IMG/VR virus record: IMGVR_UViG_3300046786_000614
Coordinates: 1 to 56,577 of that record
Strand: one strand, 5' to 3'
Length of the DNA stretch: 56,577 bases
From: a virus
Taxonomy: Duplodnaviria; Caudoviricetes
Part shown: one piece after another, positions 153 to 56,436 of the stretch
Layout: each line of letters starts with the position of its first letter
How positions within the stretch are numbered: the first letter of the stretch is position 1
The notes under the pieces: model-generated
The model's database searches: none
What the model saw: only the letters and a program-made list of their open reading frames with translations
What the model was told of the DNA's origin: nothing
Made by a program: the position numbers and the translations under genes

Positions 153-362
153 ATGGACCGACCACCCAGAACGATCGAACAACGCAGGGAAGCGCTGAAG
201 CTCAAGCAGCAGCGCATGCAGACCATAGTCGACATGCGTGCTGCAGGAAAGACCTGGAAGCAGTGCGCAGACAAGTGCGGCCTGAACCACCTGCAACGAG
301 CTCAACAGCTGCATGCCGAAGCACTGGCAGAGGGGCTGACACCGACGCCGGAGACGGCATGA
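153..362 (+). CDS. Small HTH DNA-binding protein (Cro-like position)
   Basis: AAGGAG RBS; IVDMRAAGKTWKQCADKCGL HTH-like pattern; first gene after the rightward promoter. Confidence 0.6.
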   Translation: MDRPPRTIEQRREALKLKQQRMQTIVDMRAAGKTWKQCADKCGLNHLQRAQQLHAEALAEGLTPTPETA

Positions 363-1531
363 CCGTCCGCATCATGTGCGGCTCACTACAAGACCGCATT
401 CCAGAACTGATTGCCGAGGGCGTGCTGGTCGACGCCATCGTCACTGATCCACCCTACGAACTTGGCTTCATGGGCAAGAAATGGGACGCCAGCGGCGTTG
501 CCAACGATCCGGCGACCTGGGCGCTGGCGCTCGATGTACTCAAGCCCGGCGGCCACCTGATCGCTTTCGGCGGTACCCGCACCCATCACCGCGTCATGTG
601 CGCGATAGAGGATGCAGGCTTCGAGCTGCGCGACGTGTTGATGTGGGTCTACGGGTCCGGCTTCCCGAAGTCCAAGAACTACCCCGAGGAATTTCCAGGC
701 ATGGGCACTGCGCTCAAGCCGGCATGGGAGCCCATCATCCTCGCGCGTAAACCGCTGGCCGGCAATGTGGCTGAGAACATGCGTGCGCACGGTGTTGGCA
801 TGCTGGACATTGATGGATGCCGCATCGAAACTGACGACATTTTGCGGGCCGGTGCTGGTGGCACATGGGATGTGATTCACAAAGGCGAAGGCCGCAAGGG
901 TGAGCCGAGCGCAGATCGCCGATACACCAATGCCGGCGCCACCAACTTTGCGGCCACACCCGGCCCGCGCGGCGGCGATCCGAAAGGCCGCTGGCCGGCG
1001 AACGTGGCGCATGACGGCAGCCCTGAGGTAGTGGCGCTGTTCCCGAACGTGGAGAGCGGTCAGCCAGCAGGCGTGAAGGCTGGCGGCAAACTGAACGTCT
1101 ACGGCACCTTTGCCGGCGGCATTCCGGTCACTGGCTATGGCGATGCAGGCAGCGCGGCGCGTTTCTTCTACTGCGCCAAGGCAGGCCGCACCGACCGCAA
1201 TGAGGGCTGCGAGCACCTACAGGCCAAGCCCCTGAACTGGTCGAGCGGCACGGAATCGCCCGGCACGTTTCAAGCCGAAGGCACGGACCGCACCAGCGCG
1301 AACCATCACCCGACTGTCAAGCCGACCGACCTGATGCGCTGGCTGGTGCGCATGGTGACGCCGAAGGGGGGTTTGGTGCTCGATTGCTTTGGCGGATCCG
1401 GATCGACCGGCAAGGCCGCAGTACTCGAAGGCCGCGATTGCATCCTGATCGAGCGTGAAGCCGAGTACATCCCGATCATCAAAGCTCGTATCGCACAAGC
1501 ACAAGGGCCACTATTCCAGGAAAAAGCATGA
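359..1531 (+). CDS. DNA N6-adenine/N4-cytosine methyltransferase (beta class), allele A
   Basis: Motif IV TDPPY near the N-terminus, HPTVKP, motif I DCFGGSGSTG near the C-terminus; ATGA overlap with the upstream gene. Confidence 0.92.
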   Translation: MTVRIMCGSLQDRIPELIAEGVLVDAIVTDPPYELGFMGKKWDASGVANDPATWALALDVLKPGGHLIAFGGTRTHHRVMCAIEDAGFELRDVLMWVYGSGFPKSKNYPEEFPGMGTALKPAWEPIILARKPLAGNVAENMRAHGVGMLDIDGCRIETDDILRAGAGGTWDVIHKGEGRKGEPSADRRYTNAGATNFAATPGPRGGDPKGRWPANVAHDGSPEVVALFPNVESGQPAGVKAGGKLNVYGTFAGGIPVTGYGDAGSAARFFYCAKAGRTDRNEGCEHLQAKPLNWSSGTESPGTFQAEGTDRTSANHHPTVKPTDLMRWLVRMVTPKGGLVLDCFGGSGSTGKAAVLEGRDCILIEREAEYIPIIKARIAQAQGPLFQEKA

Positions 1532-1809
1532 AAGGCCAGAAAAACCGCAAGACCCCACACGGCACCCTGACCAAGGGGCAAAGGGCAGTGCTGCAGTACA
1601 TAGCCGACTGCATCAAGGATGGTCTGGCGCCCATCCGGGCCGAGATCACCGAGCACTTCGAGTGGACCAGCCCAAACGCAGCGCAGGTGTACGTGAAGCT
1701 GCTGGCCCGTAATGGTTTCCTTGTACTGCCGGAAGGCAAGCGGGTGGCCAGGTGCATGGTGCTCACGCCGCTAGCCTTGGAAACGCTGGGGGTTGACAAT
1801 GCGCGCTAG
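1528..1809 (+). CDS. LexA N-terminal winged-HTH-like protein without peptidase domain, allele A
   Basis: LTKGQRAVLQYI...P.RAEITEHFEWTSPNAAQVYVKLLARNG parallels LexA LT.RQ...PTRAEIA...SPNAA..HLKALARKG. Confidence 0.8.
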   Translation: MKGQKNRKTPHGTLTKGQRAVLQYIADCIKDGLAPIRAEITEHFEWTSPNAAQVYVKLLARNGFLVLPEGKRVARCMVLTPLALETLGVDNAR

Positions 1810-1821
1810 CCCACATACAGT
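1793..1821 (+). promoter_or_regulatory. sigma70-like promoter
   Basis: TTGACA(1793-1798)-17 nt-TACAGT(1816-1821); conserved in the second copy at 56261-56289. Confidence 0.8.
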
Positions 1822-1827
1822 TCGCGG

Positions 1828-1972
1828 CAGTTCCGGTTTGGCAGCCGGCAACACATCCCAACCAGGCCCGATCGATGGGCGGTTGCATAGAAGTAGGTGC
1901 CGAGGTGGTGGATGCCGCCTCGACTGCCTGGGTGCCAACCCCTATGCGACTGCCCTTCCATCGGGCTTTTTC
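1828..1972 (+). ncRNA. C4/CI-like antisense RNA / attenuator cassette, allele A
   Basis: 5' hairpin with loop TTGGCA (1838-1843); long stem 1866-1890/1942-1966 plus U-tract, enclosing two hairpins, one with the complementary loop TGCCAA (1933-1938). Confidence 0.6.
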
Positions 1973-2131
1973 ATTCGGGTTGCACCAGCCCGTCAGACCA
2001 GCGTTATGCGCGCGCAAACCCCGGCGGCCGGTCAGAACAGGGTAGCGGTAAGGGCCTGCAGTCAGGGCGCCCGGTGCAAATCCGAAAGACTCCGCGGGCT
2101 GGCCGAACGTCGAAGCCCAGGGGCTTGTGAG

Positions 2132-3889: not shown

Positions 3890-4345
3890 ATGCCTAGATG
3901 GTCACCGTTTGAGCCTTATTTCTGGTCTTTGGTGGAGAAAGGCGACGGGTGCTGGACATGGAAAAGCGGCACCGATGGCAATGGTTATGCGCGCGTTTGG
4001 TACAAAGGCAAGCGCCAACCTGCCAGCCGAGTGGCCTGCGAGCTTTCAGGAAAGCCGCGACCAGGTGCACTGCACGCATGCCATACCTGCGACAACAAAC
4101 TGTGCGTCAACCCCGCCCACATTTTCTGGGGAACCGCCAAAGACAACATGCAGGACTGGACCAAAAAAGGCAAAAACAGGTTGGCCAACGACCGCACCCT
4201 GTGGGGCATGGGCAAGCACTGGGCCACCAATCCGGCCGCGAAGCGCGCCATGAGCGCTCAAATGAGAATGGAATTGTCGACCGGCCAACGCATTGTCCTG
4301 CGCGGCGAAAAAGGAAGAATTCTAGGAACGAGGAGAGCGCCATGA
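3890..4345 (+). CDS. HNH homing endonuclease
   Basis: FWSLVEKGDGCWTW...GY...ACHTCDNKLCVNPAHIFWGTAKDNMQD. Confidence 0.88.
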   Translation: MPRWSPFEPYFWSLVEKGDGCWTWKSGTDGNGYARVWYKGKRQPASRVACELSGKPRPGALHACHTCDNKLCVNPAHIFWGTAKDNMQDWTKKGKNRLANDRTLWGMGKHWATNPAAKRAMSAQMRMELSTGQRIVLRGEKGRILGTRRAP

Positions 4346-5277
4346 AAGTGTTATTGACCGGAGGAACGGGATATCTTTCTCAAGCCCTCACACGCCACCT
4401 GCTGCAGCTACCCGAGACCACCGGCATTCGTATCTACAGCCGTGGCGAGGCAGCCCAAGCCAGGATGGCCAGCGAGATTCACGATGATCGCATGCGCTAC
4501 CTGGTAGGCGATGTGAGGGACCGAGACCGCCTCGAGCGCGCCATGGAAGGGTGCGATGCGGTAATCCACACTGCCGCCCTGAAGCGGGTAGAGGTAGGCG
4601 AGCGCGACCCCAGCGAGATGATTAAGACCAACGTGCTGGGCACCATGAACGCGATCGAGGCAGCTCGAGCAGCCGGCGTAACCCGCATGGTGGTCCTGAG
4701 CAGCGACAAGGCATGCGCCCCGCTCAACGCCTACGGCGCCAGCAAGCTGATGGCTGAGAAGCTGGCGCTGGCTGCAGGCCAGGAGAGCGCCAAGGGCCCG
4801 ACGATCGCGGTGACCCGGTACGGCAACGTGGCTGGATCCACCGGCAGCGTCATCCCCATCTGGCGCGAAGCCATCGCCCACGGCCGCAAGCTGCGCCTGA
4901 CCAGCCCGAGCGCCTCCCGCTTCTGGATGACCGTAGAAGAGGCCTGCGACCTGGTCATTGCTGCGCTGCATTACCGCTACGCCGGGTGTCTGCTGGTACC
5001 CAGCCTGCCGGCCTACCACCTGCGCGACCTGATCGAAGCCATGTGCCCGCGCGCGCTGGACTACGAGATCACCGGATTGGGCCTGGGTGAGAAGGAGCAT
5101 GAGGAAATGATCAGCGAGCACGAGGCTCGAGGGTTTACCCGAATTGCGGGCATGTGGGTGAAAGGGGCAAAATCCCCAGACGGTTTTACCGAGGAGCGCC
5201 AGGGGGCCATGAGCAGTGCGCACGCCAGGCGGATGACGGTGCAGGAACTGATTGAGGCTCTGAGGAGGGTCAAGTGA
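4342..5277 (+). CDS. pseB: UDP-GlcNAc 4,6-dehydratase, PseB/CapD-like
   Basis: LLTGGTG, IYSRGE, GDVRD, IHTAALK, KTNVLG, LSSDKA, YGASK, RYGNVAGSTGSVIP, RFWMT. Confidence 0.88.
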   Translation: MKVLLTGGTGYLSQALTRHLLQLPETTGIRIYSRGEAAQARMASEIHDDRMRYLVGDVRDRDRLERAMEGCDAVIHTAALKRVEVGERDPSEMIKTNVLGTMNAIEAARAAGVTRMVVLSSDKACAPLNAYGASKLMAEKLALAAGQESAKGPTIAVTRYGNVAGSTGSVIPIWREAIAHGRKLRLTSPSASRFWMTVEEACDLVIAALHYRYAGCLLVPSLPAYHLRDLIEAMCPRALDYEITGLGLGEKEHEEMISEHEARGFTRIAGMWVKGAKSPDGFTEERQGAMSSAHARRMTVQELIEALRRVK

Positions 5278-5885
5278 CAAACGGATTCCAGGTGGTGCGC
5301 GACTTTGAGCAGGCGCTGTGCGACTACACCGGCGCCCGGTTTGCGGTGACCACCAACAGCTGCACCATGGCGATCTTGCTGGCGGTGGCCTACCATGTGC
5401 AAAAAAACCCGACCGAGCTCCACGTAGTGAACTGCCCCAAGCGCACGTACGTGGGCGTGCCCATGGCCATCCACCATGCCGGCGCGGAGATCGCCTTCAC
5501 CGACAAGCCATGGGTGGGCGAATACCGGCTGGACCCGCTGCCCGTCTGGGACAGCGCCAGGCTACTCACCAGCGGCATGTACCGCACCGGCACCATGCAG
5601 TGCCTGTCCTTCCACTGGACCAAAACGCTTGGCATTCAGCAGGGTGGTGCCATCCTCCATGACAGCCCGACCGCGGACAAGTGGCTGCGCAAGGCGCGGT
5701 TTGACGGCAGGACCGAAGGGGTACCGGCCGACCAGGATGACATCGACATGATCGGCTGGCACGCCTACATGAGCCCGGAGGTGGCTGCCGCCGGCCTGGT
5801 GCGCATGATGCACCTGCCCAAGGACAACGAACCCCTGCCGAACAGCGCCTACCCTGACTGCAGCCAACTGAGGGCCTTCAAATGA
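5274..5885 (+). CDS. Shortened DegT/PseC-like PLP sugar aminotransferase
   Basis: FEQALCDYTGARFAVTTNSCTMA, WDSA, CLSFHWTK (PLP lysine), GGAI; only 203 aa; GTG start overlaps the pseB stop. Confidence 0.8.
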   Translation: MTNGFQVVRDFEQALCDYTGARFAVTTNSCTMAILLAVAYHVQKNPTELHVVNCPKRTYVGVPMAIHHAGAEIAFTDKPWVGEYRLDPLPVWDSARLLTSGMYRTGTMQCLSFHWTKTLGIQQGGAILHDSPTADKWLRKARFDGRTEGVPADQDDIDMIGWHAYMSPEVAAAGLVRMMHLPKDNEPLPNSAYPDCSQLRAFK

Positions 5886-6226
5886 GCGGACAACAAGACG
5901 CACTGCTGGCCATCGGCCGGGATCCAGCCAAGCCGCAATGGGTAAAGATGACGATCCGGCGCGATGACGGCCAGGAAATGTGGGTGAGTCTGGACCCCGA
6001 CAATGCGGTCGACGTGGCCGAGGCGATTGCCAAGGAGGCCTACCACGCCAAGTACGGCAAGCCCAGCCCGCTGGTGCACACCCTTAAGGATGAGATCCTG
6101 GCCAAGAAGCGGGAGAAGCTGATCAACCGCTGCAAGCTGGTGGCCCCCCAGCTACTCGAGCGCGGCCGCAGCAACGAGTACATCGTGACCGAGCTTATCG
6201 ACATTGTGCTGGCCGAGGTGACCTGA
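5882..6226 (+). CDS. Hypothetical protein
   Basis: ATGA overlap; phage codon usage. Confidence 0.65.
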   Translation: MSGQQDALLAIGRDPAKPQWVKMTIRRDDGQEMWVSLDPDNAVDVAEAIAKEAYHAKYGKPSPLVHTLKDEILAKKREKLINRCKLVAPQLLERGRSNEYIVTELIDIVLAEVT

Positions 6227-6435
6227 TGGCCTGCGACATCTGCGGGAAAGCGACCACCGACCTGGAGGCGCTGCTTGAGCGGTACCAGGCGCCCGACATC
6301 AAGATGATCTGTCCGGACTGCCTGAAGACCGTCAACAAGCAGCATAGCGACCTGCTGACGGTGGTGCTCAAAATGCGCGACGGGTGGCTGAACGAGTGGA
6401 TTCGCAACATGAAGCTAAGGCTGACCGGAAAATGA
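6226..6435 (+). CDS. Small zinc-binding hypothetical protein
   Basis: CDIC...CPDC; overlapping starts and stops. Confidence 0.6.
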   Translation: MACDICGKATTDLEALLERYQAPDIKMICPDCLKTVNKQHSDLLTVVLKMRDGWLNEWIRNMKLRLTGK

Positions 6436-7016
6436 GCAAGCGCTACTGCATCATTCCCGCGCGCGGCGGCAGCCGGCGGATACCCGGCAAGAACAAGCGG
6501 CTGTTCGAAGGCAAGCCCATCATCTGCCGGGCGATCGACACCGCCAAGGAATCCGGCCTGTTCAAGGAAATCATTGTATCCACCGACGATGACGGGATCC
6601 GCAATCTGGCGGCGCACCGCGGCTGCCGCATCCACCTGCGCGGCGAGTATGAGGCGCAAGACCAGGTAGGCACCCAGGAGGTGGCCCGCAAGGTGCTGCT
6701 GGACTTCAAGGTGCCGGCCCGTAACATGGTGTGCTGCCTGTACCCCACCACCCCACTGCTGTACCCGGATGACCTGAGAGCGGGCGTCAAGCTGCTCGAG
6801 CGCGCCGGCCCGGTGTGGGCCATGAGCGTGGGCGCCGAGCCGCTACGGGATGCCGGCTGCTTCTACTGGGGCAGGGCTGAAGAGTGGTACAAGCAGACCC
6901 CGCTGATCGGCCCCAACACCAGGATGGTGGTCCTGCCGGAGAGCAGGGTATGCGACATCAACACCGAGGAGGACTGGCAGGAAGCCCTCCGCAAATACAA
7001 GGAACTGACCACGTGA
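6432..7016 (+). CDS. pseF: CMP-nonulosonic acid synthetase (cytidylyltransferase), PseF/NeuA-like
   Basis: IIPARGGSRRIPGKN, GKPII, IIVSTDD, CCLYPTTPLL, DAGCFYWG, DINTEEDW. Confidence 0.9.
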   Translation: MSKRYCIIPARGGSRRIPGKNKRLFEGKPIICRAIDTAKESGLFKEIIVSTDDDGIRNLAAHRGCRIHLRGEYEAQDQVGTQEVARKVLLDFKVPARNMVCCLYPTTPLLYPDDLRAGVKLLERAGPVWAMSVGAEPLRDAGCFYWGRAEEWYKQTPLIGPNTRMVVLPESRVCDINTEEDWQEALRKYKELTT

Positions 7017-11826: not shown

Positions 11827-12137
11827 GCCTATTTCAATGCGAACGCTGTGGCTGCTGCGAGAACACCGCGCTGGCCTGCCAAGGGTGTGATGGGTACGCC
11901 GTCACTTTCTTTGACTGGACCGGCATCGAGGACCGCAAGGGTAAGAAGCTGTGCAGTGCGTGCGCGCCCACTGAATATGCAGATGGCGGACTGACTCAGT
12001 ACGGCAAGTGGCACGGTCAGTTCCCGCGTGTGTTCCTGCCAATGGGCATGTTCCATACCAACCACGAAGGCAACCTCGCGCACAAGGAAACCGGCGACAC
12101 GGACTTCCGTAAGTACGCAATAGAGGCCCCACAATGA
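11823..12137 (+). CDS. Cys-rich hypothetical phage protein
   Basis: MSLFQCERCGCCENTAL...LCSAC...GKWHGQF. Confidence 0.65.
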
Positions 12138-12598
12138 AACTGTACAACGTCAAGGAATGCCAGGGCGAGGCCATCGAGATCCTGTGGCAGCTGCTGTGCG
12201 AGCGCCCCGACTACGCCAACATCAGCCACGATGGCAAGCCCGACCGCAACAAGCACGTGAGCTTTGTGATGGCGCACCCGTACCGGGAGTGGTGCCTGAT
12301 CATGACCGACGTGGAGGATTCCGGCCCGAACAAGTGGCACCGTTGGGTGGGCGCGATCTACATCACCCACCAGAACGAGCTTGGCATTGCCATCCTGGAG
12401 CGGTGCCAGCGCAAAGGCTACGCCCGCCAGGCGATCGACCTGATGATGCAGCGCCACCCGCGCGATTACTACCTGGCCAACGTCGCGCCGGGCAACCACC
12501 CCAGCCACCGGCTGTGGGAAAGCTTCGAGAACCACGCCATTTGCCAAGTCACCTACCGCATAACCCGAGGAGAAGACCATGGAAGCCCCAACCCCTAA
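12134..12598 (+). CDS. GNAT N-acetyltransferase (candidate PseH equivalent)
   Basis: ELGIAIL..CQRKGYA (acetyl-CoA motif A), ANVAPGNHPSHRLW. Confidence 0.8.
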   Translation: MKLYNVKECQGEAIEILWQLLCERPDYANISHDGKPDRNKHVSFVMAHPYREWCLIMTDVEDSGPNKWHRWVGAIYITHQNELGIAILERCQRKGYARQAIDLMMQRHPRDYYLANVAPGNHPSHRLWESFENHAICQVTYRITRGEDHGSPNP

Positions 12599-13022
12599 GA
12601 CCCCCCACCCGCTGGCGCTGGAAGCCGCATCGACCCACGGCAAGGCTTTGTGCGCCGCGATCTGGGCGCTACGCCACAAGCTCAACGACATGACGGTCGA
12701 GATCCCGGTCGAGGAGATGGAGAAGTTCAGGAAGAGCCTGGACTACCACGAGCAGCAGGCAGTGCTCAGGTTCACACCTACCCACCGCGGCTTGTACATC
12801 AGCATGGTCGACGCCACCAGCAGCGCAGCCATTGTGCAAAGCGAAAGCGACGAGGATGACCAGCGCCAGAAGGACAAGCGCGCCGGCATCAAAGCCATGA
12901 TCGAGAGCATCCCGCAGCTGATTGCCGAGCACCGCGGCATGCTGGCCACAGGAGCGGACAGCGAGACCCTGGTGCGGGAGATCCATGAAGCAGCCCTTGC
13001 GGCTTACCAGGCGGCCCGCTGA
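12579..13022 (+). CDS. Hypothetical protein
   Basis: GAGGAG RBS; phage codon usage. Confidence 0.65.
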   Translation: MEAPTPKTPHPLALEAASTHGKALCAAIWALRHKLNDMTVEIPVEEMEKFRKSLDYHEQQAVLRFTPTHRGLYISMVDATSSAAIVQSESDEDDQRQKDKRAGIKAMIESIPQLIAEHRGMLATGADSETLVREIHEAALAAYQAAR

Positions 13023-13492
13023 TGACCACGATCGCATGGGACGGGCATACCCTGGCGGCCGACCGTGGCAGCTGGTCAGGCAACATGCAGACGGAAGTTT
13101 GCAAACTGTTCGTGTTCAAGGACGGAGAGATCGGCCGCAAAGGATTCCCGCCTGGCGGCTGGGCCAGCACAGGAGACTGGGCATTCAATCATGCTTTTGC
13201 GCAGTGGTTGAGGGACGATAGTGTTTCATTCCCGCTGCTGTGCAAGGACGCCAGCCCAGACCATAGCATTGGCATCTGGGTGACAAACGACGGGCAGGTT
13301 TTTCGAGCGCACGTACGAGGCATCCTGACCCCCGTCATGGGCAAAATCGCAGCAGGCGGCGCCGGGCAAATGTTTGCCCTTGGCGTGCTGGCCATGGGAG
13401 GCACTGCTGAGCGCGCCATCAGCCTTGCCGCGGTGCACACCGATGCTGCCGCATTTGGTGTCGACACATGGAGCCCATCATGCTCCCGATGA
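13022..13492 (+). CDS. Ntn-hydrolase (HslV/proteasome beta-like) phage protein
   Basis: N-terminal MTTIAWDG.TLAAD; A.G.G..FALG...G.TAERAI..A...D. Confidence 0.7.
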   Translation: MTTIAWDGHTLAADRGSWSGNMQTEVCKLFVFKDGEIGRKGFPPGGWASTGDWAFNHAFAQWLRDDSVSFPLLCKDASPDHSIGIWVTNDGQVFRAHVRGILTPVMGKIAAGGAGQMFALGVLAMGGTAERAISLAAVHTDAAAFGVDTWSPSCSR

Positions 13493-14481
13493 TCGTGGCT
13501 GAGCTGTCAGCCAACGCAGCCGTCGGCAACCTCGACATGGCCCTGCGCACGGTGGAGGCGGCCAAGAAAGCGGGAGCGGACGCAATCAAGCTGCAGACCT
13601 GGACACCGGGCACCATGGCGATCGACGGCAACTACCGCATCCAGCATGGGGCCTGGAAGGGCAAGCAGCTGGCCAGCCTGTACCAGGAGGCCCATACCCC
13701 ATGGGAGTGGCACAAGCCACTGTTTGAGCGCGCGCGCGAGCTCGGCATGCTGGCCTTCTCCACGCCCTTCGACAAGCGTGCCGTGGACTTTCTGCAAATA
13801 TTGGATTGTAGTCACTACAAGGTGGCCAGCTTCGAGATCACCGACCTGCCGCTGATCCGCTACATCGCCAGCACTGGCAAGCCGATCATCATCAGCACCG
13901 GCATGGCAACCAGCGAAGAGATCCGCCATGCGGTAGAGGCGGCACGCTTCAGGGCCAACCTGGACGTCACCCTGCTCAAGTGCACCAGCGCCTACCCAGC
14001 GCCGCCGGAAGAGGCCAACCTGCGTTCCATGACCCAGCCCGCCTGGTACCTCAAGACCGCCTTCGGATTGTCCGACCATACAGTGACCGATGGTGCGGCA
14101 TGCGTGGCAGCGCACATGGGCGCCACCATGATCGAGAAGCACTTCACCCTGAGCAGGCTGAACGGCGGGCCGGATGCAAACTTCAGCCTCGAGCCGCCAG
14201 CCTTCGCTCGGTTTGTGGCCAATGTCAGGGCAGCCGCGGTGGCCGGCGGACGCATTGCCTATGGACCCAGCGAGTCGGAGAGCACCGAACTGCGCCGCGG
14301 TGCGTACTGGGCAACCGACCTGCCAGCAGGCCACGTGGTGACCGAGCAGGACCTAGTGACCGCAAGGCCGGAGACAGCCCTGTCAATCAGGGAGTTTGAA
14401 ACCTGCGTGGCTGGCAGGGAACTGACGCATCCTGTGAAGGCCAAGTCGGCCATTCACCTTGGGGTTGTGGCTTCCGTTTGA
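13468..14481 (+). CDS. pseI: Nonulosonic acid synthase, PseI/NeuB-like, with C-terminal SAF domain
   Basis: IVAELSAN, GADAIKLQT, AHTPWEWH, FSTPFD, KVASFE, STGMA, LLKCTSAYP, GLSDHT, IEKHFT, GGPD..FSLEP; start could be 13480 or 13489. Confidence 0.92.
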   Translation: MEPIMLPMIVAELSANAAVGNLDMALRTVEAAKKAGADAIKLQTWTPGTMAIDGNYRIQHGAWKGKQLASLYQEAHTPWEWHKPLFERARELGMLAFSTPFDKRAVDFLQILDCSHYKVASFEITDLPLIRYIASTGKPIIISTGMATSEEIRHAVEAARFRANLDVTLLKCTSAYPAPPEEANLRSMTQPAWYLKTAFGLSDHTVTDGAACVAAHMGATMIEKHFTLSRLNGGPDANFSLEPPAFARFVANVRAAAVAGGRIAYGPSESESTELRRGAYWATDLPAGHVVTEQDLVTARPETALSIREFETCVAGRELTHPVKAKSAIHLGVVASV

Positions 14482-22539: not shown

Positions 22540-22577
22540 AGCAGAATCCGTTTGTCTCCTCCACCCTCCTGTGGATT

Positions 22578-22602
22578 AAGCCCGGTTCGCCGGGCTTTTT
22601 TT
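22578..22602 (+). terminator. Rho-independent terminator
   Basis: AAGCCCGG-TTCG-CCGGGCTT followed by a T-run. Confidence 0.85.
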
Positions 22603-22608
22603 CGCCCA

Positions 22609-28650: not shown

Positions 28651-30969
28651 ATGCCGCGCATCCCATCCGTTGAAGGTTCAGCCCGGCCAACCCCGCAACC
28701 GGCGGGCAACATCACGCGCATAGGCGCCGGTGACGCTGACAGCCTGACCGCTGAGGCGCGGGTAACCGCACAGCAGGGCGGCATGCTCATGCAAGCCGGA
28801 GATCAACTGGCGGCCCGGCAAAAGGAGTTCGACAAGGAGGTCGAGCGTGAGCAGCTGCGGGTAGACACCCTGCGTGCTGAAGATGCCATGACCAAGCTGC
28901 GCGAGAAGCAGTTGGCCTTGAGCCTGGGAGACAAGGGGTATACCAAGGTGCAGGGCACCGCCGCCCTGTCCCGCCCATTGCTGAAAGACTACGGCGACCT
29001 GTTCGACGCCGAAGTCAAAGGCATGATGGGCGAGCTCGGCAACGACCAGCAGAAGGATCTCTTTCGCCAGCGCGCGCAGGTGGTCAACCTGCAGTACCGC
29101 GAGGGCATCCTCCGGCACCTGGCCACCGAAAGCCGGCAGGCCCAGAAGCAGCAACTCGAGGGCACGGTGGCGGTGGAGATCAAGCAGGCGACTGCGAACT
29201 GGGACAAGCCTGACGAGGTGGGCTTCAGCATCGAGCGCGTGCGCGCCGGCATCAACCGCATGGCAGAGATCGACGGGTGGGACAGCAAGTACACCCAGGC
29301 CAAGACCAAGGAAGTGCTGGGCAAGATCCACGATGCGGTGATCGACCAGATGATCAGCAGCGGGCAGCTGGTGCGCGCGCAGGACTGGTACAAGGCCAAC
29401 AAGGAGGACGTGGACGTCGGCACTGCCAAGACCATCCAGGCCAAGACGGTCGATGCCCAGCAGCGCGAGATCTTCAACGGGTACCAGGCCGGGTACCTGG
29501 CCAACCAGGAGAGCATCCCGGGCCTGAAGGGCATCCTGGCCCAGGTGAGCGCCGACAAGACCCTGAGCGATGAACGCAAGAATGTACTTGTAGGCAGGTT
29601 CCAGAGCCGTATCGAGGGCATTGAGCGCAAGCAGGAGGCCGCAGCCGACCGGGCCGAGCGCCGCGCCACCACCGAACTGAACGCCATGATCACCCGCATC
29701 GGGCAGGGCTGGGAGCCCAGCATCGAGCAGATGGGCGGGCTGATCCAGGCGGCCAAGGGGCGGCCGCAGCTGGCCGGCCTAGTCAACGATGTAATCCAGA
29801 CGGCCAACGCCACCCGTGTGTTCAGGCAGGCAGACCCGGTGGTGCAGGAGCGCCTGATCAGCGAGGCGACCGTTGCAGTGCGGGAAGGCAAGATCGCGCC
29901 CAAGCTGCTCAACACCTTCCAGTCGATCGCCGAGCACCAGCAGAAGGTGCGCGATGCTGACCCGACCAGCTATGCCGTGCAGCAGGGCATTGTGGGTACC
30001 GACGAACTGGCGGCCAAGCCGATCGACCTGACCAAGCCTGACCCGAACCAGCTGCAAGCCCGCATGGATCTGGGCCGCGCCATGGCTCAGCGGTACCGGA
30101 CCCCCTTCAAGCCGCTGACCGAGGAGGAGCGCAAGCTGGCGACCGCCACGCTGCGCAACGGCAGCCCTGAACAGCGCCGTGACTTCTTCAAGAACTTGAG
30201 CCTGGCCACTGGTGACGATACGAACGGGTACAAGGCCATCATGGCCCAGATCGCCCCTGACGACCCGGTAACCGCGGTGGCTGGTTTGTTTGCTCGCCGG
30301 GGAATGAAAGACGCACAAGGGGCGGCGGTGGCCGACAGGCTGCTCGACGGGCTGGCCATCCTGCGCCCCAACAAGACCACGGACGGCAAGTCGGGCGGCA
30401 CCCTGCTGCCGATGCCCAAAGAATCCGAGATGCGCAAGGAATGGGACAACTATGCGCGTGGCGCATACGCTGGCAGCCCGAGCGCCAACAACGTGACCTT
30501 CCAAGCCGCCCAGGCCATCTATGCCAGCCTGAGCAAGCAGGCCGGCGACCGCGATACCAGTGTGCTGGATGCCAAGCGCTGGACCCAAGCCATGCAGGAG
30601 GCCAGCGGTGGTATCACCCGGCACGCCGGCAAGGAAGTGGTCAAGCCATGGGGGCTGGGCGACGGTGAATTTGCAGACCAGCTGGACACCCGCCTGCGCA
30701 TGATCGCGAACAGCGGCAACCTCGAGCAGGGCATGAGCCTGAGCAAGTTGCGCGACCTGCCCCTGCGCCCCGACAAGGATGGCATCTACGTGCTGTCGAT
30801 CGGCGATCGAGCGCTGACCGACAAGACCGGCAAGGTGATCACGATCGACTTTAACCAAGCCCTGCCCGCCAATGCAGTGCAAAGCAAGACCCCGACCAGC
30901 GCCGCCGAGATCGAGCGTGCCAGGCTTGAGCGCGTGACCCGCGCGCGCGACATCAGGCAGCAGCCATGA
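28651..30969 (+). CDS. Internal virion (ejection) protein, gp15-like
   Basis: MPRIP start; 772 aa helical protein; position. Confidence 0.7.
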   Translation: MPRIPSVEGSARPTPQPAGNITRIGAGDADSLTAEARVTAQQGGMLMQAGDQLAARQKEFDKEVEREQLRVDTLRAEDAMTKLREKQLALSLGDKGYTKVQGTAALSRPLLKDYGDLFDAEVKGMMGELGNDQQKDLFRQRAQVVNLQYREGILRHLATESRQAQKQQLEGTVAVEIKQATANWDKPDEVGFSIERVRAGINRMAEIDGWDSKYTQAKTKEVLGKIHDAVIDQMISSGQLVRAQDWYKANKEDVDVGTAKTIQAKTVDAQQREIFNGYQAGYLANQESIPGLKGILAQVSADKTLSDERKNVLVGRFQSRIEGIERKQEAAADRAERRATTELNAMITRIGQGWEPSIEQMGGLIQAAKGRPQLAGLVNDVIQTANATRVFRQADPVVQERLISEATVAVREGKIAPKLLNTFQSIAEHQQKVRDADPTSYAVQQGIVGTDELAAKPIDLTKPDPNQLQARMDLGRAMAQRYRTPFKPLTEEERKLATATLRNGSPEQRRDFFKNLSLATGDDTNGYKAIMAQIAPDDPVTAVAGLFARRGMKDAQGAAVADRLLDGLAILRPNKTTDGKSGGTLLPMPKESEMRKEWDNYARGAYAGSPSANNVTFQAAQAIYASLSKQAGDRDTSVLDAKRWTQAMQEASGGITRHAGKEVVKPWGLGDGEFADQLDTRLRMIANSGNLEQGMSLSKLRDLPLRPDKDGIYVLSIGDRALTDKTGKVITIDFNQALPANAVQSKTPTSAAEIERARLERVTRARDIRQQP

Positions 30970-33900
30970 GCCTCGACCTGTACAGCGACGAACTGCAACG
31001 CAGCAACCGCGCCGGCGGCGTGGCCGGCAACGTAGAGCCCGGCCTGTTCGAAGGCTTTGTCCGTGGCACCGGCATGTTCGCGATGAAGGAGTTTGCCAAG
31101 ACGGCGCGATCGGTGAGCATGGCCGGCGCATCCATCCCGGTGGCGATCGATGCCATCACCGGCGGCACCACGCTGCAGGACAAGTACTTCAAGAGCCACG
31201 AGGACACCTTCGGCAGCGCGGTCAAATTCTGGGATCCGGACCCGGGCACCGTGGGCGAGGCGGGTCAGATCGCCGGTAGCCTGATCGGCCTGCTGCCACA
31301 GATCATCGCCAACCCGGCTGCTGCGGTGGCCAGCCAGCAACTGAGCAGCGCCGAGGATCTGGTGACCAAGCCCGGCGTGAGCGCCAACAAGGCCATGGCG
31401 GTGGGCGCCGTCCAGGCCGTGGGTTTGGGCCTGGGCATCTGGGCGCCACCGGCGCTGGGGTACAACCTGGGCAGCAGGATAGCGGCCGGCGCCGGCATCA
31501 ACTTGCTGCAGGGTGTCCTGACCCGAGGCGCCAGCAGCGCTATCTTGGACGGCACCGAGGCTGCCAAAGACTTCCCGGCCTTGGGCGGCAAGGAGATGAC
31601 GCTGGACCTGCTGCTGGGCGCCGCCTTCGGTGGTGCGGCTCATGTGGTGCCAAGCTGGCGCGCGGAAACGGAAGCGTGGACCGATCGACTGAACGTCAAG
31701 GCCCAGCGTGAGATTCGCGAGGAGATGGGCGCCGCGACGCCCTTCGACCTTGGCGCCGCTGCTGCAAGGGTGAACAAGCAGTATTCCGACGCAATATCGG
31801 AATGGGCACAGAACGTCACCCCCACCCAGAAAGCCGCCCTGGCCACCTTGCGCGTGGCGCAGCATGCCAACGTGGACAGCCTGCCTGGCAGGCCCACCCA
31901 TGCCGGTGCCGTCGACGCCAACCGTGAGCGCCTGTCGGAAGCGATCGACAGCCTGCTGAAAGACAAACCCCTGCCGCCCGAAGGCAGGACCGCTACGGCG
32001 CCCGATGCGCGCCCGGTACCTGAAACGCCCACCATTCGGGACGTGAGCGACATCGCGCTGCGGCAAGCTGGCGAGACCCCGGAACTGACGCAGAACATGG
32101 TGCCCGCGCGCGACTGGGAGATCCTGACCAGACTGGGCCTTGTACAGGAAGGCAAGACTGCGGAAGGGAACACCTACCAGTACGTCGACACCGCCTCGGC
32201 ACTTGGGCCTGAGCGCGATGCCAGAGCCCAGATCGAAGCGGATGAGCGCGCACAGGGCGTGCCGATCGAAGAGAAGATCGCCGGCCTCGAGAACCGCATC
32301 GCAGCGTATGAGCGCGCGATCGAGGACACCCGCTTCACCGAACCCGACAAGGTAGGCGAGCTCGAGACCAAGCTGGACATGCTCAACGAGCGCCTGGCCA
32401 CCCTGAAGGAAGAGCGCCCCGACTTCGAGGTCGACCCCGAGAAGACAGCCCAGGCAGTAGAGACCACCCGCGCCATGCGGGAAGGCAATGCCGAGATGCG
32501 TGATCCGGATATGCCGGAGCAGGTCGAGGTGCTCGAACCTACCCAGCAGCGCCTTGAGCGCGAGATCGGACAATCCATTGAGGGCATGAAAGGGTTTGCC
32601 CCCGGGGAGCATGCGCTGGCAGCCCGCTTGGGCGCCACTTTTGTGAACGCTCTTGCAAGGGCGGTAGCTAAGCCCGCCGGGTTGGATCCTGATGTGGTTG
32701 CCGCAAGGCTTGGATTTAAACGCGCTGGCGCCCCATCTGGTGAGGCCCTGACCCAACCGCGCCGCACGCCGGCCGACCTGATCGAGCGGTACCGGCCACG
32801 GGTGGAGACCAGCCAGTACGGCGGCCGGGTGTACGCCAATGACTACATGGAGCTCGGCAACAGCGAGGCCATCGGGTCTGGCAAGGGCATCAAGGGTGAC
32901 CGCCGGGTGTTTCGCATCATGGACAAGCAGACCGGCGCCGCGGCCGACGTCGGGTTCGTAATCGTCGAGATCGACAAGAACGGGAAGTTCGCCGCGCTGC
33001 GCAACATCGAGATCCGCAAGGACTACCGTGGCAATGGGGCTGGTGAGCGGGTAGTGGCCACCATGCTGGCGCACAACGGGCCTGGCTACGAGATGGACAT
33101 TGTAGACATCACTCATGCGGGTGGTGACGGGATTGGTAGCGACACCGATGCGCTGCCGTTCTGGAAGAAGAACGGCACCCAGCTGATCAACTACAGCCGG
33201 GATCCCAATGTGCAAATGGATGGTATGCTCTCGCTTGAGGACTACCTGGGAGCCAGACGTGGACGAGGAACTGAAGAAGGCAATCAAGGAGCAGCAGCGG
33301 AAGACCTATCGGCCGACCGAGGCGGAAGAGGAGCAGCAGCAGGCGGCATGCGCGGAGGCGGACCTTCGGCAGCAGACCGCGCAGAGCTTGCCAGAATAAA
33401 CGGCACCCTTTTCCAGGGCGAAAACGGCAAGTGGTACTACTCAGCCCTGGGAAGGGCAATAGACAACAGCCCCACCAAGGCGGCTGACGCCAACGGCTGG
33501 AAGCAATGGCTCAAGGGCCTGGTAAACAAGGGCACGGTGAAGGCCGACGAGATCAAGGCCACCGAGCTCGAGGAATACCTCGACGCCACCCAAGGCAAGA
33601 TCACCAAGGAACAGCTGCAGACCTTCATGCAAGAGGGTGGCGTGCGCGTGGAGGAGGTGCAGCTAGGTGCGCCACCTGATGAGCCGCCGGAGATTGCAGT
33701 CAAGCGCCAGCGCTTTCAAGACCTGGTCGACATTGAGGAGGACCCACAGAGCAATCGATCGCTCACGCCGGCCGAGCGCGCCGAGATGGATCAGTTGCTG
33801 GGGGATCTGCGCGATCACCCCAACCCATGGCTACGCCAGCGTGAGGACACCACCACGCACTTCGCAAGCTTCCAACTCCCAGGCGCCAAAGAAGGAAGCT

Positions 33901-36900
33901 ACAGGGAGATAGCGCTGGTGCTGCCGGAAACACCTGCCACGCGCAAAGCTAGAGCAGCAATGGAAGCGCGCAACGCTACCAGAGAAGTGGGCAGAAAAGA
34001 GGTTTTCGACAGGTATGCTCCGGCGATTGAAGAGGCTTATAAGGCCTACGATTCACTGCCATGGGATGCGCCTCGACAAGTCAAAGACACCATGTACGGG
34101 GAAATGGAAGCGCTGATGATTCAGCGTGACACAGAAGCCGCGGCATTGCATGGGGAAATGGAAGAGCGGGTCACCGCGCGCGATGCTGGTGCGTACAAAG
34201 TCCCCCAGGGCCACAGCATGGGAGACAAGGCAGACACCAACCGCATAGCCCACATACGCTTCAACGAGCGTACAGGCCCCAACGGCGAGCGCGTGCTCTT
34301 CATTGAGGAGATCCAGAGCGACTGGGCGCAGCAGGGGAAGAAATACGGGTTTGCTGGCGGCGAGCCTGAATTGAAGCCCGGATATCGAATCTGGCAAATG
34401 GAGAATGGCCGCTGGCGCATCGACAAGGACGACAACCCGAACCGCGCCTGGACAACCAACGACACGCGCGAAGGGGCGCTGAAGTCAGCCCTGAGCATGG
34501 GCGCTGCCACGCAAAGCGATATACCCAACGCCCCTTTCGTAGGCAAGACCGACGCATGGGTAGCCCTAAGCCTAAAGCGCATGATCAGGTATGCGGCCGA
34601 GAACGGATTCGACCAAGTAGCCTGGACAACCGGAGAGCAGCAGGCAGCGCGGTACAACCTGGCCCAGGTGGTGCACCAGATTGACGTGGTTGGCAGGACC
34701 GATGCTCGCACCGGTGAGCAGACGCGCCAGGTTGTAATTCATGCCAAAGATGGCAGCGCCATCACGCTGGGCGTGAACAACGCTGGCAAAGTCGACAACG
34801 CCAAGCCAGCCGACTACCAGGGCAAGAATCTTGAGGACATCGTAGGCAAGGCCATGGCCGAGAAGATCATGGCAAACCGCACCCAGACGATTGCAGGCGA
34901 TGGCCTGAAGATCGGAGGGGAGGGCATGGCGGGCTTCTACGACAAGATCGTCCCAACGGTAGTCAAGGACGTGCTGAAGAAGCTGGGGGGCGGGAAAGTT
35001 GATGTGGTCAACCTGAAAACCCCTGATGAAATGACGCCCCTAGAAAAACTGCAAGAGGCCAGGGACGCGTCAGGCATGACCATGAACGAATGGATGCGGA
35101 TGACTTCACAGGAACAAAAAGCCGCTACCGAGGAATACTGGCGAAACAAGCCGGTGGAAACCATGGCCCAGCAGGGCCTTACCATCACCCCCGAGATGCG
35201 CGCAAAGGTAATGGAGGGGCAAGCGCTCTTCCAATCCGCAAGCCCCTACGGGCTCGAGGCATTTGGCATAAAATCACTGGATGAAATATCCCCAGCGTAC
35301 CGAACGCCTGAAGCTTGGCGGGAAGTCCCGGCCGCCATGCGGAATGTGGACACCGCCCGCGCGCTACGGCAATCGGTCATCGACTTCGAGCAAGGTCTCA
35401 ACCGGGAATTCGGCTGGACAGAAGGCATCCAGCATGTCTGGATCAACCTCGACGCCAACGGCAACCTGAGTATTGACCGGGCCGCCAACCTCACGCCAGA
35501 GCAGCGCCTGGCTGTGGTGGAGGGGGCTAAGGCCTATGCTGACGCCAACGACCTTGGCCTGACCGTTCGCCGTAGCGCTGCCGGCGACCTTGGTGATGAT
35601 CTATTGAGCAACGCTGGGCTGAAGAACTGGATCAGCATCCAGCAGACGGCAACGGGCGTCAAGGCGCCGCCTAACCAGGTACTGTGGGTCAAGGATCCTC
35701 GAGGTGCAGCACTCTTCCGGCGCCCGGTAAGCAAGAAGTCAGAGGCTCGCGGCTTCCTGGACATTGCCGCCGATCGCAAGCTCACCATCGGCCTGCTGGA
35801 CAACTCCGACCCCAGCACCCTGATCCATGAGCCGGCGCATGCCTTCCTCGAGATCCTGAACGACCTGGCCAAGACCACGCCGGAGCTCGAGGGCTGGATG
35901 AAAATTTTCTTCGATGACAACGGGATCACCCGCCAGCAGTGGGATGGCTGGGGCATCAACGAAAAGCGGGTGTACCACGAGCGGTTTGCCCGCGGCTTCG
36001 AGTCCTACGTCATGAGCGGCAAGGCCCCGACCGAAGAATTGCGCAACCTGTTCCAGCGCTTCAGGGACTGGCTGATCGCGATCTACAAGTCGGCCACCTC
36101 ATTGAACGTGAAGGTGAGCAAGGAAATGGAAGGTCTGTATGCCAAGCTGCTGGGCAGCGAGCAGGCAGACCCGTCGACCACCGCGCCGGCGCCCCGGGCA
36201 ACGGACCTGGAGTCTCCTCCTCCTCCTCCCTCCAGGGGCGAAGAAGGGGCGCCGGCTGCCGGTGGAATGTTCGATGACCTGGTGGCAGAGAAGCCGGCCT
36301 ACGCTGACAAGACCATCGATGATCCAGACATGCGCGAGGTGCTGCGTACCATGGCTGAGAGCGAGGCCGGATGGGCGCAGATAGGCGGTAGGAACTTGAC
36401 TGGTGAGACCGGCGTATTCAACCGCAGCACCTGGATACCCAAGGCTGAATGGTGGCTGGATAGGCCGGACAACATCAAAAAACTGAAGGAAGCGGAGTAC
36501 TATTCGATCGTTGACAAAGCCCTGATGGGCGAGCCGTTAAAGCCGATCGAGCAGCGCGCCATTGACTTCATGTTGGCCAAGGCAAATGAGCGCCTGAGGT
36601 TTGACCACGAGCATGGCCCAGCGGAAGTGGATGCGCTCACCAGTGAACTGCAAGGCGCCGATCTTGATCCAAGTCTGAAGAACCTGCGGGCTGTGGATGC
36701 GGTGGCGATAGCGCACCAGATTGACCCGGCCAAGGTAGAGCGGTTGGCCATGGAATTCCAGGACGATGATGCCGGATTTGTGGCAGGCATTGAAAGGATG
36801 ATCGATGATCACAAGAACAGCCAAGCTGCTGCAAGCAGCGCTGAAAACCAGCCAGCGCCGGCAAAGCCAGCCGCCGATACAAACGGCGCTCGGTCAGCCG

Positions 36901-45779: not shown

Positions 45780-46231
45780 AAGTCGCCTCCAGATTCATGC
45801 TGCCGGTTGAGATGCTTTTGGGCTGGCTGCTGTTTGCCATGGGACTGGTGGGTGGCGTTGGGCAAGGAACGCTGTATCGGGCCCTGCTCGAGCGCGGCGA
45901 GAACCTCAGTTGGGCGCTGCTCTTCTGTACGCTAGGCGGCATTCAGGTCATGATCGCCGTGACAGAATGGCGCTGGATGCGAGCATCGCCAGAGTTGGAT
46001 ATCATGCGGGCTAGTACCGCGCGCAGCGTGAGCGCCGGCATGGCAGTACTGGCATGGGCAGCCGTGTTTGTGTGGATCATCATGGAAGGGTTAGCGCGAA
46101 CCTCCATGATGGTAGTAATGATCGCGCCAATCACGGCCGCCTTCAATGCTTGGGCGTACGCAGAAAACCAAAAGGTAAAATATGCGCTCGACCCAAAGCA
46201 CCCCACTACTCGCCTACAGTTCCATCGGTAG
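45776..46231 (+). CDS. Four-TM membrane protein (lysis region)
   Basis: Four hydrophobic segments. Confidence 0.6.
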   Translation: MKVASRFMLPVEMLLGWLLFAMGLVGGVGQGTLYRALLERGENLSWALLFCTLGGIQVMIAVTEWRWMRASPELDIMRASTARSVSAGMAVLAWAAVFVWIIMEGLARTSMMVVMIAPITAAFNAWAYAENQKVKYALDPKHPTTRLQFHR

Positions 46232-46607
46232 CTTCCTCCTGCTGATGGCCATCCCGCTTGCCGCGGCGGGCGCCACCGACATGGCCAAGGCGCTCGATCT
46301 GGGCAGCGCCCGGTGGTGGGGCCTGTTCCTGTTTGCGCAGCTGATCACCCTGCTGGGCTACGCCGCCTCGAGCCTGAGCCAGTGGGCCGGCTGGGTTGAT
46401 GGGACAGTGCTCGCCAAGCTGACCATCATTCAGGGTGTGGCCTGCTCGCTCATGGCCGGCAACATCGCCTTCCTGCTGGGGCTGCACTACGCCCAGGTGA
46501 CAGAGGTGCAAGCCCTGATCGCCAGCGGTGCAGGCGGCTACGGCGGCGACAAGCTGCTGACCCCATTACTCAACCGCATATTCGGAAAGGCGACAGGCGA
46601 CAAATGA
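46182..46607 (+). CDS. Holin (putative)
   Basis: Multiple TM segments, ASGAGGYGG, basic C-terminus; directly upstream of the endolysin. Confidence 0.65.
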   Translation: MRSTQSTPLLAYSSIGSFLLLMAIPLAAAGATDMAKALDLGSARWWGLFLFAQLITLLGYAASSLSQWAGWVDGTVLAKLTIIQGVACSLMAGNIAFLLGLHYAQVTEVQALIASGAGGYGGDKLLTPLLNRIFGKATGDK

Positions 46608-46987
46608 TCCTGCACGAGGAGAGGCTGGAGAAGCTGCACCCGGATCTGGCTGCAGTGGTGAGGGAGGCGGCGAAGCACACACCGTGGGACATAGCGGTGA
46701 TCGAGACCCTGCGCACCCGGGAGCGGCAACAGCAGCTTGTCAACCAGGGCGCCAGCCAGACCATGCGCAGCAGGCACCTGGCCGGGCCTGACGGGCTGGC
46801 AAGAGCGGTGGACATAGCGCCTGCACCTGATGGGCAGATCAGCTGGGCGTGGCCCCTGTATCACGAGCTTGGTAGCTACATGAAAGACGCGGCAGCCAAA
46901 CTGGAAACGGTAGTTGAATGGGGCGCGGACTGGCCGCGATTTAAAGATGGGCCTCATTGGCAACTACCATGGGCAAATTACCCGTAG
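46604..46987 (+). CDS. Endolysin, peptidase M15 (L-Ala-D-Glu type)
   Basis: LHPDL, LRT.ERQ, SRHL, AVDI, WGADW..FKDGPHWQL. Confidence 0.9.
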   Translation: MILHEERLEKLHPDLAAVVREAAKHTPWDIAVIETLRTRERQQQLVNQGASQTMRSRHLAGPDGLARAVDIAPAPDGQISWAWPLYHELGSYMKDAAAKLETVVEWGADWPRFKDGPHWQLPWANYP

Positions 46988-49806: not shown

Positions 49807-49817
49807 ACAAGCCCCCG

Positions 49818-50535: not shown

Positions 50536-50566
50536 TGCTGCTCCTCAAAAGCCCCGAAGGGCGAAA

Positions 50567-56001: not shown

Positions 56002-56264
56002 AGGGCGTGAAGAACCGCAAGACCCCCTACGGCAAGCTGACCAAGGGGCAAAGGGCAGTGCTGCAGTACATAGCCGACTGCATCAAGGATGGTCTGGCGC
56101 CCAGCAGGGCTGAGATCACCGAGCACTTCGAGTGGTCTAGCCCGAACGCAGCCCAGACCTACCTCAAGCACCTCGAGCGCAATGGCTTCCTTGAACTGGC
56201 AGCTGGCAAGGTGGCACGGGGGATCAAGCTGACGCCGCTCGCTCATGTGACATTGGGCACTTGA
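55998..56264 (+). CDS. LexA N-terminal winged-HTH-like protein, allele B
   Basis: PSRAEITEHFEWSSPNAAQTYLKHLERNG...ARGIKL. Confidence 0.82.
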   Translation: MKGVKNRKTPYGKLTKGQRAVLQYIADCIKDGLAPSRAEITEHFEWSSPNAAQTYLKHLERNGFLELAAGKVARGIKLTPLAHVTLGT

Positions 56265-56289
56265 CAATGTGCGCTAGCCCACATACAGT
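56261..56289 (+). promoter_or_regulatory. sigma70-like promoter, second copy
   Basis: TTGACA-17 nt-TACAGT. Confidence 0.8.
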
Positions 56290-56295
56290 TCGCGG

Positions 56296-56400
56296 CAGCT
56301 GCCGAGAACAGCTACTGGTAAAGAGGCCTCGAGTCTCTGCGCTTTCCCGCAAGGGGCCTGTTCTCGGCAGGCGGCGCAGAGACTCGAGGCTTTTTCTTTT
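56296..56400 (+). ncRNA. C4/CI-like antisense RNA / attenuator cassette, allele B
   Basis: 5' hairpin with loop CCGAGAA; perfect 17-bp stem 56326-56342/56374-56390 plus U-tract, enclosing a GCAA tetraloop hairpin and a hairpin with loop TTCTCGG. Confidence 0.65.
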
Positions 56401-56436
56401 GCGCTGCCGTACCTCACGCGACAGCAGCGCGCCTAT

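Follow-up and report, generated by a model that had tools for sequence, protein, structure and literature searches.

The genome of a freshwater bacteriophage (IMG/VR virus record IMGVR_UViG_3300046786_000614, linear class, 100% complete) carries, at about positions 1828 to 1972, a short stretch that lies behind a strong promoter, is predicted to fold into hairpins and ends in a U tract. Near the other end of the record, the same promoter is followed by a stretch of the same plan and of unrelated sequence. What is this element, and why would a single phage record hold two forms of it? The analysis covered the entire record, hereafter the window, i.e. 56,577 nucleotides (nt). An earlier annotation made from the sequence (the first-pass annotation) had proposed an exchangeable antisense RNA that sets immunity or incompatibility in the manner of the P1 C4, P4 CI and N15 CA RNAs. 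Its observation is confirmed and strengthened by the results presented here and its immunity interpretation is partly supported. Globally, the element is probably a discrete gene of a podophage that encodes a small RNA, is served by a strong promoter and contains, within a self-contained fold, its own terminator. It is best filed as a new small-RNA family (allele A and its homologues) and an analogous allele (allele B) that share a predicted loop-loop contact and a three-way junction closed by the terminator.

Both copies stand behind TTGACA and TACAGT hexamers separated by 17 nt, as had been reported, and these two sites are the only ones on either strand of the window that match the sigma-70 consensus at 10 of 12 positions or better. 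The similarity between the two copies stops at 1830/56298, approximately at the expected transcription start, and returns at 2010/56427. Upstream, 1528-1830 and 55998-56298 are 82% identical; downstream, 2010-2160 and 56427-56577 are 95% identical; between these blocks, 1831-2009 and 56299-56426 cannot be aligned, in agreement with the claim that the two sequences are unrelated. The swap thus begins close to the transcription start and extends some 40 nt beyond the terminator.

Instead of occupying two loci of one genome, the two copies represent alleles of a single locus that belong to two co-circulating strains, since the contig ends overlap imperfectly and one sequencing run holds both forms at different depths. 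The assembly has wrapped around the genome and strung both alleles together. The overlap of the ends begins with a first block (1-362 versus 53052-53412, 97% identity), which is followed by the two blocks that flank the cassette. Four sequencing runs (X1, X3, X4 and X5) were compared, all of them as DNA contigs, and in X3 and X4 only the stretches with contig cover were taken as evidence. Contigs of three of the four runs (X1, X4 and X5) connect 1830 to 2010 through 128 other letters. In X1, the contig with this replacement has a depth of 52 and is present together with an A-type contig that is identical over 1604-2087 and has a depth of 9 (the A form being at about 9-12). A 174-nt piece of A type is found in X5, and a loose end in X3 corresponds to the first 30 letters of B. 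The exchangeable RNA module behind a conserved promoter, as first proposed, therefore corresponds to an exact swap seen both in the end overlap and in the contigs of the runs. Of the idea of two copies in one contig, what stands is that both forms are real; they belong, however, to two strains.

Further variation is visible at this locus. An A-like contig of X1 covering 1915-1974 shows 10 differences in 60 nt and has a different apex of junction hairpin 1. A loose end of X3 before 2010, of which only the 30-letter end is visible, has the last 19 nt of B preceded by different letters. A second difference between the two strains lies at 363-1527 versus 53413-55997, where a 422-aa N6/N4 DNA methylase is found in the former and an SNF2-type helicase, a 330-aa methylase and an 82-aa open reading frame (ORF) in the latter.

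The cassette of allele A folds at -79.9 kcal/mol (z-score -6.8), a value that none of 200 shuffles reaches. Its 5' hairpin is weak by itself (z -2.1), and the minimum free energy structure of the single sequence is one long hairpin that buries TGCC, the two-hairpin fold being 2.3 kcal/mol worse. The architecture and the loop pairing of allele A rest on two homologues. A search with the large terminase, which covered records other than those near the window, led to 13 related viral contigs, including two near-complete genomes (G001 and G002) whose terminases show 67-71% identity. In each of these genomes, no more than two sites match sigma-70 at 10/12 or better, and one of the two precedes a clear homologue of the allele A RNA. 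Both homologues adopt the three-way-junction fold even as single sequences (z -5.1 for G001 and -7.2 for G002; 0/200 shuffles in each case).

The RNAalifold consensus of the three A-type RNAs comprises a 5' hairpin, a three-way junction bearing two hairpins and, closing this junction, a long stem that leads to the U tract, i.e. 54 pairs, among which 19 display compensatory changes. When the loop-loop helix is added, 94.3% of the 174 cells are paired and 20 of the 58 pairs have changed on both sides. None of 500 shuffles reaches any of the five measures of this pair count, and sliding the partners by 1-3 columns leaves only 37-51% of the cells paired. The loop-loop helix itself has four pairs that are kept in all three RNAs (12/12 cells), one of them having changed from C:G to G:C in G002; furthermore, the hairpin that bears the partner loop shows a compensatory U:A to C:G change. 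The bases of the junction are invariant among the three A-type RNAs. The nucleotide identity of the RNAs reaches 55-60%, versus 47-48% for the adjacent helix-turn-helix (HTH) gene. Judging from this difference, from the compensated pairs and from the invariant junction, the RNA itself appears to be under selection.

Allele B shows the same order of parts as A (5' hairpin, linker, closing stem with U tract, junction hairpins 1 and 2). Its second junction hairpin adjoins the 3' strand of the stem and has a loop that matches the loop of the 5' hairpin. The cassette folds at -61.4 kcal/mol (z -5.8; 0/200 shuffles); as in A, the 5' hairpin alone is weak (z -0.6). The first-pass annotation had described this shared architecture and had correctly located the complementary loops, TTGGCA (1838-1843) and TGCCAA (1933-1938) in A, CCGAGAA (56302-56308) and TTCTCGG (56361-56367) in B; folding, which it had suggested as a check, supports it for B by itself and for A together with its two homologues. 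In B, the complementarity even extends over 13 nt instead of 7 and is beyond chance, as no perfect match of this length arises in 5000 shuffles and its duplex energy is reached by only 2 of 2000. The loop-loop contact is made credible by one compensatory event in the A family and, independently, by this 13-nt match in allele B.

The sequence of allele B is nevertheless not related to that of A in any detectable way. R1, a covariance model built from the three A-type RNAs, gives no match to B at E values up to 1 with default filters. With the filters off, B obtains 29.4 bits, mostly from the long stem, with the 5' hairpin misplaced into promoter sequence that would not be transcribed (allele A obtains 155.8 bits, a score on a training sequence). 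By these comparisons, allele B is an analogue and not a detectable homologue, and it is not counted as a member of the A family. All four RNAs (A, B and those of G001 and G002) have a GC-rich stem base followed by five U. It appears that the plan, rather than the sequence, is under selection, since A is conserved in two related phages and B, which replaces it without being homologous, follows this plan too.

Within Rfam, the whole window yields no match at either cassette at the gathering threshold. With E values up to 10, six weak rows appear over 1700-2400 and seven over 56150-56577, none of them from the C4 family and all far below the cut-offs; the homologous loci of G001 and G002 give no match at E values up to 0.1. 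The A-type RNA thus seems to be a conserved family new to Rfam, the literature search having been aimed at comparator systems and novelty being judged from Rfam. A degenerate pattern for the A-type 3' half retrieved four loci, namely the two known homologues and two others, and the latter were rejected as members with R1 scores of only 8.9 and 6.9 bits. The sole match above the gathering threshold in the window is a Betaproteobacteria toxic small RNA at 22553-22603 on the plus strand (55.4 bits for a cut-off of 50). It is a CU-rich hairpin with a terminator, is flanked by a gene that stops at 22539 and by the capsid gene (at 22789), and hints at a betaproteobacterial host.

Table 1. Features of the probable small-RNA locus and of its surroundings (positions in the window)
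Feature	Position	Strand	Details
A-type small RNA	1826..1972	+	Predicted start to U tract 1967-1971; model R1 155.8 bits
5' hairpin, A-type	1830..1852	+	Loop 1838-1843 (TTGGCA); 1839-1842 (TGGC) predicted to pair with 1934-1937
Closing stem, 5' strand (A)	1861..1890	+	Pairs with 1942-1971; helix 3: 28 pairs, 11 changed on both sides
Junction hairpin 1 (A)	1895..1929	+	Helix 4: 14 pairs, 5 changed on both sides
Junction hairpin 2 (A)	1930..1941	+	4-bp stem (helix 5); tetraloop GCCA 1934-1937 complementary to loop of 5' hairpin (loop-loop helix = helix 2)
Closing stem, 3' strand and U tract (A)	1942..1971	+	Intrinsic terminator (predicted)
B-type small RNA	56296..56395	+	From folding of cassette B
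5' hairpin, B	56297-56313	+	Loop CCGAGAA 56302-56308
Closing stem, B	56321-56343 / 56373-56395	+	23 bp; U tract 56391-56395
Junction hairpins 1 and 2, B	56346-56355, 56356-56372	+	Loop of hairpin 2 TTCTCGG 56361-56367
13-nt complementarity, B	56299..56311	+	Perfect match to 56358-56370 in junction hairpin 2
Swapped cassette, allele A	1831..2009	+	179 nt; replaced exactly by 128 letters in contigs of 3/4 runs
Swapped cassette, allele B	56299..56426	+	128 nt; from end-overlap alignment and run contigs
Sigma-70 promoter, allele A	1793..1821	+	TTGACA 1793-1798, 17-nt spacer, TACAGT 1816-1821; overlaps last codons of LexA-domain gene
Sigma-70 promoter, allele B copy	56261..56289	+	TTGACA 56261-56266, TACAGT 56284-56289
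Near-palindrome in promoter spacer	1799..1816	.	14/18 self-complementary; candidate operator of LexA-domain protein
Near-palindrome, allele B copy	56267-56284	.	16/18 self-complementary
LexA-type DNA-binding domain protein	1528..1809	+	93 aa; just upstream of promoter; nothing but this domain
LexA-domain protein, allele B copy	55998-56264	+	88 aa; counterpart of 1528..1809
Small helix-turn-helix protein	153..362	+	First gene of early rightward operon; second copy 53203-53412

According to the reading preferred here, the host-type sigma-70 promoter, which is strong, would start transcription at most a few bases away from the cassette edge and give a transcript of about 140 nt for allele A and about 100 nt for allele B. 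This RNA would fold into the 5' hairpin, a short linker and the long closing stem around the three-way junction; as the 3' strand of the closing stem leads into the U tract, the RNA would carry its own intrinsic terminator. Pairing between the loop of the 5' hairpin and that of the second junction hairpin would involve 4 bp in the A family and 7 to 13 nt in B, a contact that might either lock a compact fold or join two molecules hand in hand. The terminator, located after the first early gene(s), would also stop transcription coming from a weaker early promoter, so that the element would separate, as a gate, the early gene(s) from all that follows on this strand. In the lineage of the window, a palindrome has been gained in the spacer of the promoter, and the LexA-domain protein encoded upstream probably binds it.

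Several points weigh against this small-RNA gene. As the four runs consist of DNA contigs, where the RNA starts and ends and how abundant it is are predictions. The A family has three members, its loop-loop helix relies on a single compensatory event and allele B is known from a single sequence. The loop pairing of allele A, to which attention had initially been drawn, is at chance level when taken by itself (a loop match of at least 6 nt occurs in 2861 of 5000 shuffles and its duplex energy is reached by 597 of 2000), and what upholds it is its conservation in the two homologues. R1 finds no member in 10 other terminase-related records, nine of which are fragments that are 13-48% complete, nor in 12 loci that carry distant relatives of the HTH gene. 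No convincing target in trans was found in the phage, the best complementarities having E values of 0.3 or worse, and a 9-mer complementary to the conserved junction shows no co-variation. Finally, conservation of the fold would equally be anticipated for an element acting in cis, so that the free RNA is a presumed product.

The alternative closest to the initial proposal is a self-recognising RNA gate, similar in action to P4 CI and P1 C4 and unrelated to them. The free RNA made from the strong promoter would kiss the same two hairpins in nascent transcripts initiated at its own or at the early promoter, or in those of a co-infecting genome of the same allele. Kissing would decide whether the polymerase stops at the RNA's own terminator or runs into the rest of the genome; altered formation of the long-range terminator would then set an allele-specific read-through and thereby exclusion or 'immunity' between co-infecting strains. 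The two complementary elements, both in hairpin loops, are swapped together and are orthogonal between alleles, and both alleles co-circulate on otherwise near-identical flanks. Furthermore, the 13-nt complementarity of B covers whole hairpins and exceeds what a tertiary contact needs, and the strands of the A terminator are about 90 nt apart, which makes its efficiency plausibly tunable. However, the contact in the A family amounts to only 4 bp, and the perfect 23-bp stem of B should terminate unaided. Overall, this gate is considered unlikely.

The known immunity RNAs offer a precedent for such a mechanism. P4 CI is described as causing premature termination by pairing with seqA and seqC of its own leader (PMC4825925), and C4 as blocking the expression of ant in the immI operon of P1 (PMC8198154). 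The present element shares with P4 CI and P1/P7 C4 its nature, a small structured phage RNA with loops complementary to sites on the same transcript and a specificity that can differ between related elements. The same likeness presumably holds for N15 CA. However, the kinship with P1 C4, P4 CI and N15 CA that had been suggested finds no support, no Rfam family, C4 or other, matching either allele or the two homologues in sequence or structure at threshold. Whereas those RNAs are processed out of a leader, the present one would end at its own terminator. Moreover, it has one complementary pair, both partners of which lie inside the RNA, with no second site downstream: the target sites expected in the leader are not found and, since 2010-2160 is common to both alleles, the downstream leader cannot carry allele specificity.

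The genes that such an RNA would be expected to control are also missing. Among the ORFs of the window that were annotated (69 with Pfam, 48 with PHROGs), no integrase, CI-type repressor, antirepressor (ant), Icd, KilA or Q-type antiterminator was found, in line with the remark of the first-pass annotation that no icd/ant/kil-type ORF is evident downstream, and no lysogeny, antirepressor or replication gene was found under the control of the element. A prophage-immunity role has therefore no visible substrate, and a role in immunity or incompatibility is a possibility that is not deduced from the data. An RNA-only switch based on allele-specific self-recognition in a phage without visible lysogeny genes, i.e. 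a convergent counterpart of P4 CI/P1 C4 immunity on a new RNA fold, is likewise unlikely.

Another explanation to which we give little credence is a module of the lambda PR'-tR' type, in which the promoter drives a long rightward operon and is constitutively terminated, the short RNA being mainly a by-product comparable to the 6S RNA of lambda or the StxS of Stx phages. The polymerase would be made resistant to the terminator either by a factor of the phage (the small HTH protein or the one with the LexA domain might be candidates) or by the RNA itself, as in HK022. The put element of HK022 is a cis-acting antiterminator RNA made of two simple stem-loops and is not known to contain a terminator or a promoter of its own. 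Like put, the present RNA is structured and is located just downstream of an early promoter or first early gene, ahead of terminators; unlike put, it has its own promoter and terminator.

The layout fits a PR' module well: a regulator gene, a strong promoter over its end, a terminator 100-145 nt further on (such a module would have it within about 100-260 nt) and then 46 kb of same-strand genes without any other strong sigma-70 promoter, so that a short terminated transcript precedes a long operon. The PR' promoter of Stx phages is described as constitutive and terminated at tR', the short RNA having become a functional small RNA (PMC7547250), and the region from Q to the late genes is reported to be heterogeneous among these phages (PMC6266700), as the cassette is here. 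However, no protein of an antiterminator family such as Q was found among the Pfam or PHROG matches, and the upstream genes encode instead the LexA-domain protein, methylases, a helicase and the small HTH protein. The genes located just downstream are unknowns, nucleases, methylases, a helicase and sugar-synthesis genes, i.e. early or middle functions and not lysis or packaging. Furthermore, G001 and G002 lack the LexA-domain gene, which is found in 0/5 related records searched, and the initial transcribed sequence differs between alleles. In addition, a by-product would not be expected to retain 20 compensatory pairs and invariant junction bases: unlike free sequence space, the present RNA is structurally conserved with covariation.

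It is very improbable that the element is simply a replaceable terminator of the early operon, with a promoter that is fortuitous or otherwise used and with 5' hairpins and loop matches devoid of function. Non-homologous replacement of terminators is frequent, and both the weakness of the 5' hairpins alone and the chance level of the A loop match by itself would agree with it. However, the A-type 5' hairpin and its loop pairing are kept with compensatory changes in three phages, the stems far exceed in length what a terminator needs, and each genome has its best sigma-70 match at this promoter.

Last, a scaffold similar to the pRNA of phi29, in which identical RNAs would join through two complementary loops into dimers or rings on a phage machine, can practically be dismissed: although the three-way junction, the podophage context and two loops whose 4-bp complementarity co-varies between phages while the remaining sequence diverges recall pRNA, whose 4-5 bp kissing contacts between identical molecules are described as essential (PMC4201828), one loop partner here is a 5' hairpin outside the junction, the Rfam pRNA model matches neither allele nor the two homologues, the phage has a large terminase of the ordinary kind together with a T7-type portal, no protein-primed polymerase was detected in the window and the RNA gene lies in the early region.

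Few phage small RNAs are understood, and C4/CI, pRNA and StxS each revealed a new principle. A candidate family absent from Rfam is added, and its two orthogonal alleles on near-identical backgrounds provide a natural swap experiment for the study of RNA function. Were the loop contact intermolecular or in control of termination, it would represent a new RNA-based specificity in a non-temperate phage.

The gene content of the window is that of a podophage. It encodes a T7-type portal (head-tail connector), a large terminase (at 17203), a capsid protein, a 2044-aa ORF, a holin and an endolysin (lysis genes at 46182-46987). These genes are nearly all on the plus strand, from 263 to 48064, and a short minus-strand block of early genes occupies 48086-53084. 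The 2044-aa ORF (30966-37100, plus strand) has no Pfam match and lies in the tail/internal-protein region. The window contains no tRNA or tmRNA gene. Cultured phages gave no megablast or blastn match, and tblastn returned only matches of about 43% identity to the LexA-domain protein and of about 25% identity to the portal.

The LexA-domain protein aligns with residues 4-69 of solved LexA and probably binds the near-palindrome of the promoter spacer as a candidate operator. This is inferred because the palindrome and the gene occur together in the two copies of the window (2/2) and are both absent from the two relatives, G001 and G002 (2/2). A self-complementarity of 16/18 is reached by only 10 of the 56559 18-mers of the window, and the spacing of the half-sites is one that we take to be LexA-box-like. 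In viral contigs, a first search detected neither the promoter pattern (0 matches), nor the LexA-domain protein, nor the downstream 126-aa protein. An alignment search with the LexA domain retrieved one locus with 38% identity in metagenome contigs, three with 38-45% in viral contigs and none in genome contigs.

The early region that contains the RNA gene is a mosaic. In G001 and G002, the homologue of the small HTH gene opens the early rightward operon and ends within the promoter of the RNA. In the lineage of the window, methylase/helicase modules and the LexA-domain gene lie between the HTH gene and this promoter, and in contigs of runs X4 and X5 the LexA-domain gene follows immediately on the end of the HTH gene. 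The helicase and the methylase of G001 sit downstream of the RNA gene. As their position relative to the RNA differs between lineages, the RNA gene is a separate module, which always closes the first short operon. One locus with a distant relative of the HTH gene (L043 1885-2010, in a viral contig with 41% GC) shows an 11/12 sigma-70 promoter followed by a long hairpin overlapping a terminator, a layout that is possibly analogous, with unrelated sequence.

The control region of the early rightward operon (53137-53178, also about 86-127) contains an 18-bp palindrome, TGCAA-N8-TTGCA, which overlaps a weaker promoter-like site (TTGCAG-17-TACAGT, about 53150-53178) whose -10 hexamer is also that of the RNA promoter. 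The small HTH protein probably uses this palindrome as its operator, and a similar one is located at the corresponding place in G001.

Downstream of the cassette, a non-coding leader (2058-2160, identical to 56475-56577) is 100% identical between alleles over 103 nt, the adjacent gene being only about 85% identical. It displays no coding pattern, folds over 1973-2240 no better than shuffles (z +0.6) and shows no consensus fold with the relatives (positive covariation term); two patterns taken from the conserved part of the leader matched nothing in genome or viral contigs. A 37-nt core of this leader (2066-2102) is found with other flanks in contigs of X4 and X5 and includes, within a hairpin, a perfect DnaA-box-like 9-mer. 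The idea of a replication origin was dropped, as no such 9-mer was seen on reading the leaders of G001 and G002.

Among the genes located further downstream, a set for the synthesis of a nonulosonic acid (pseudaminic/legionaminic-like) occupies 4339-7016 and 12134-14481 on the plus strand. It includes a Polysacc_synt_2 dehydratase, a DegT-type aminotransferase, a cytidylyltransferase, a methyltransferase, a GNAT protein and NeuB, and homologues of these genes are also carried by G001 and G002.

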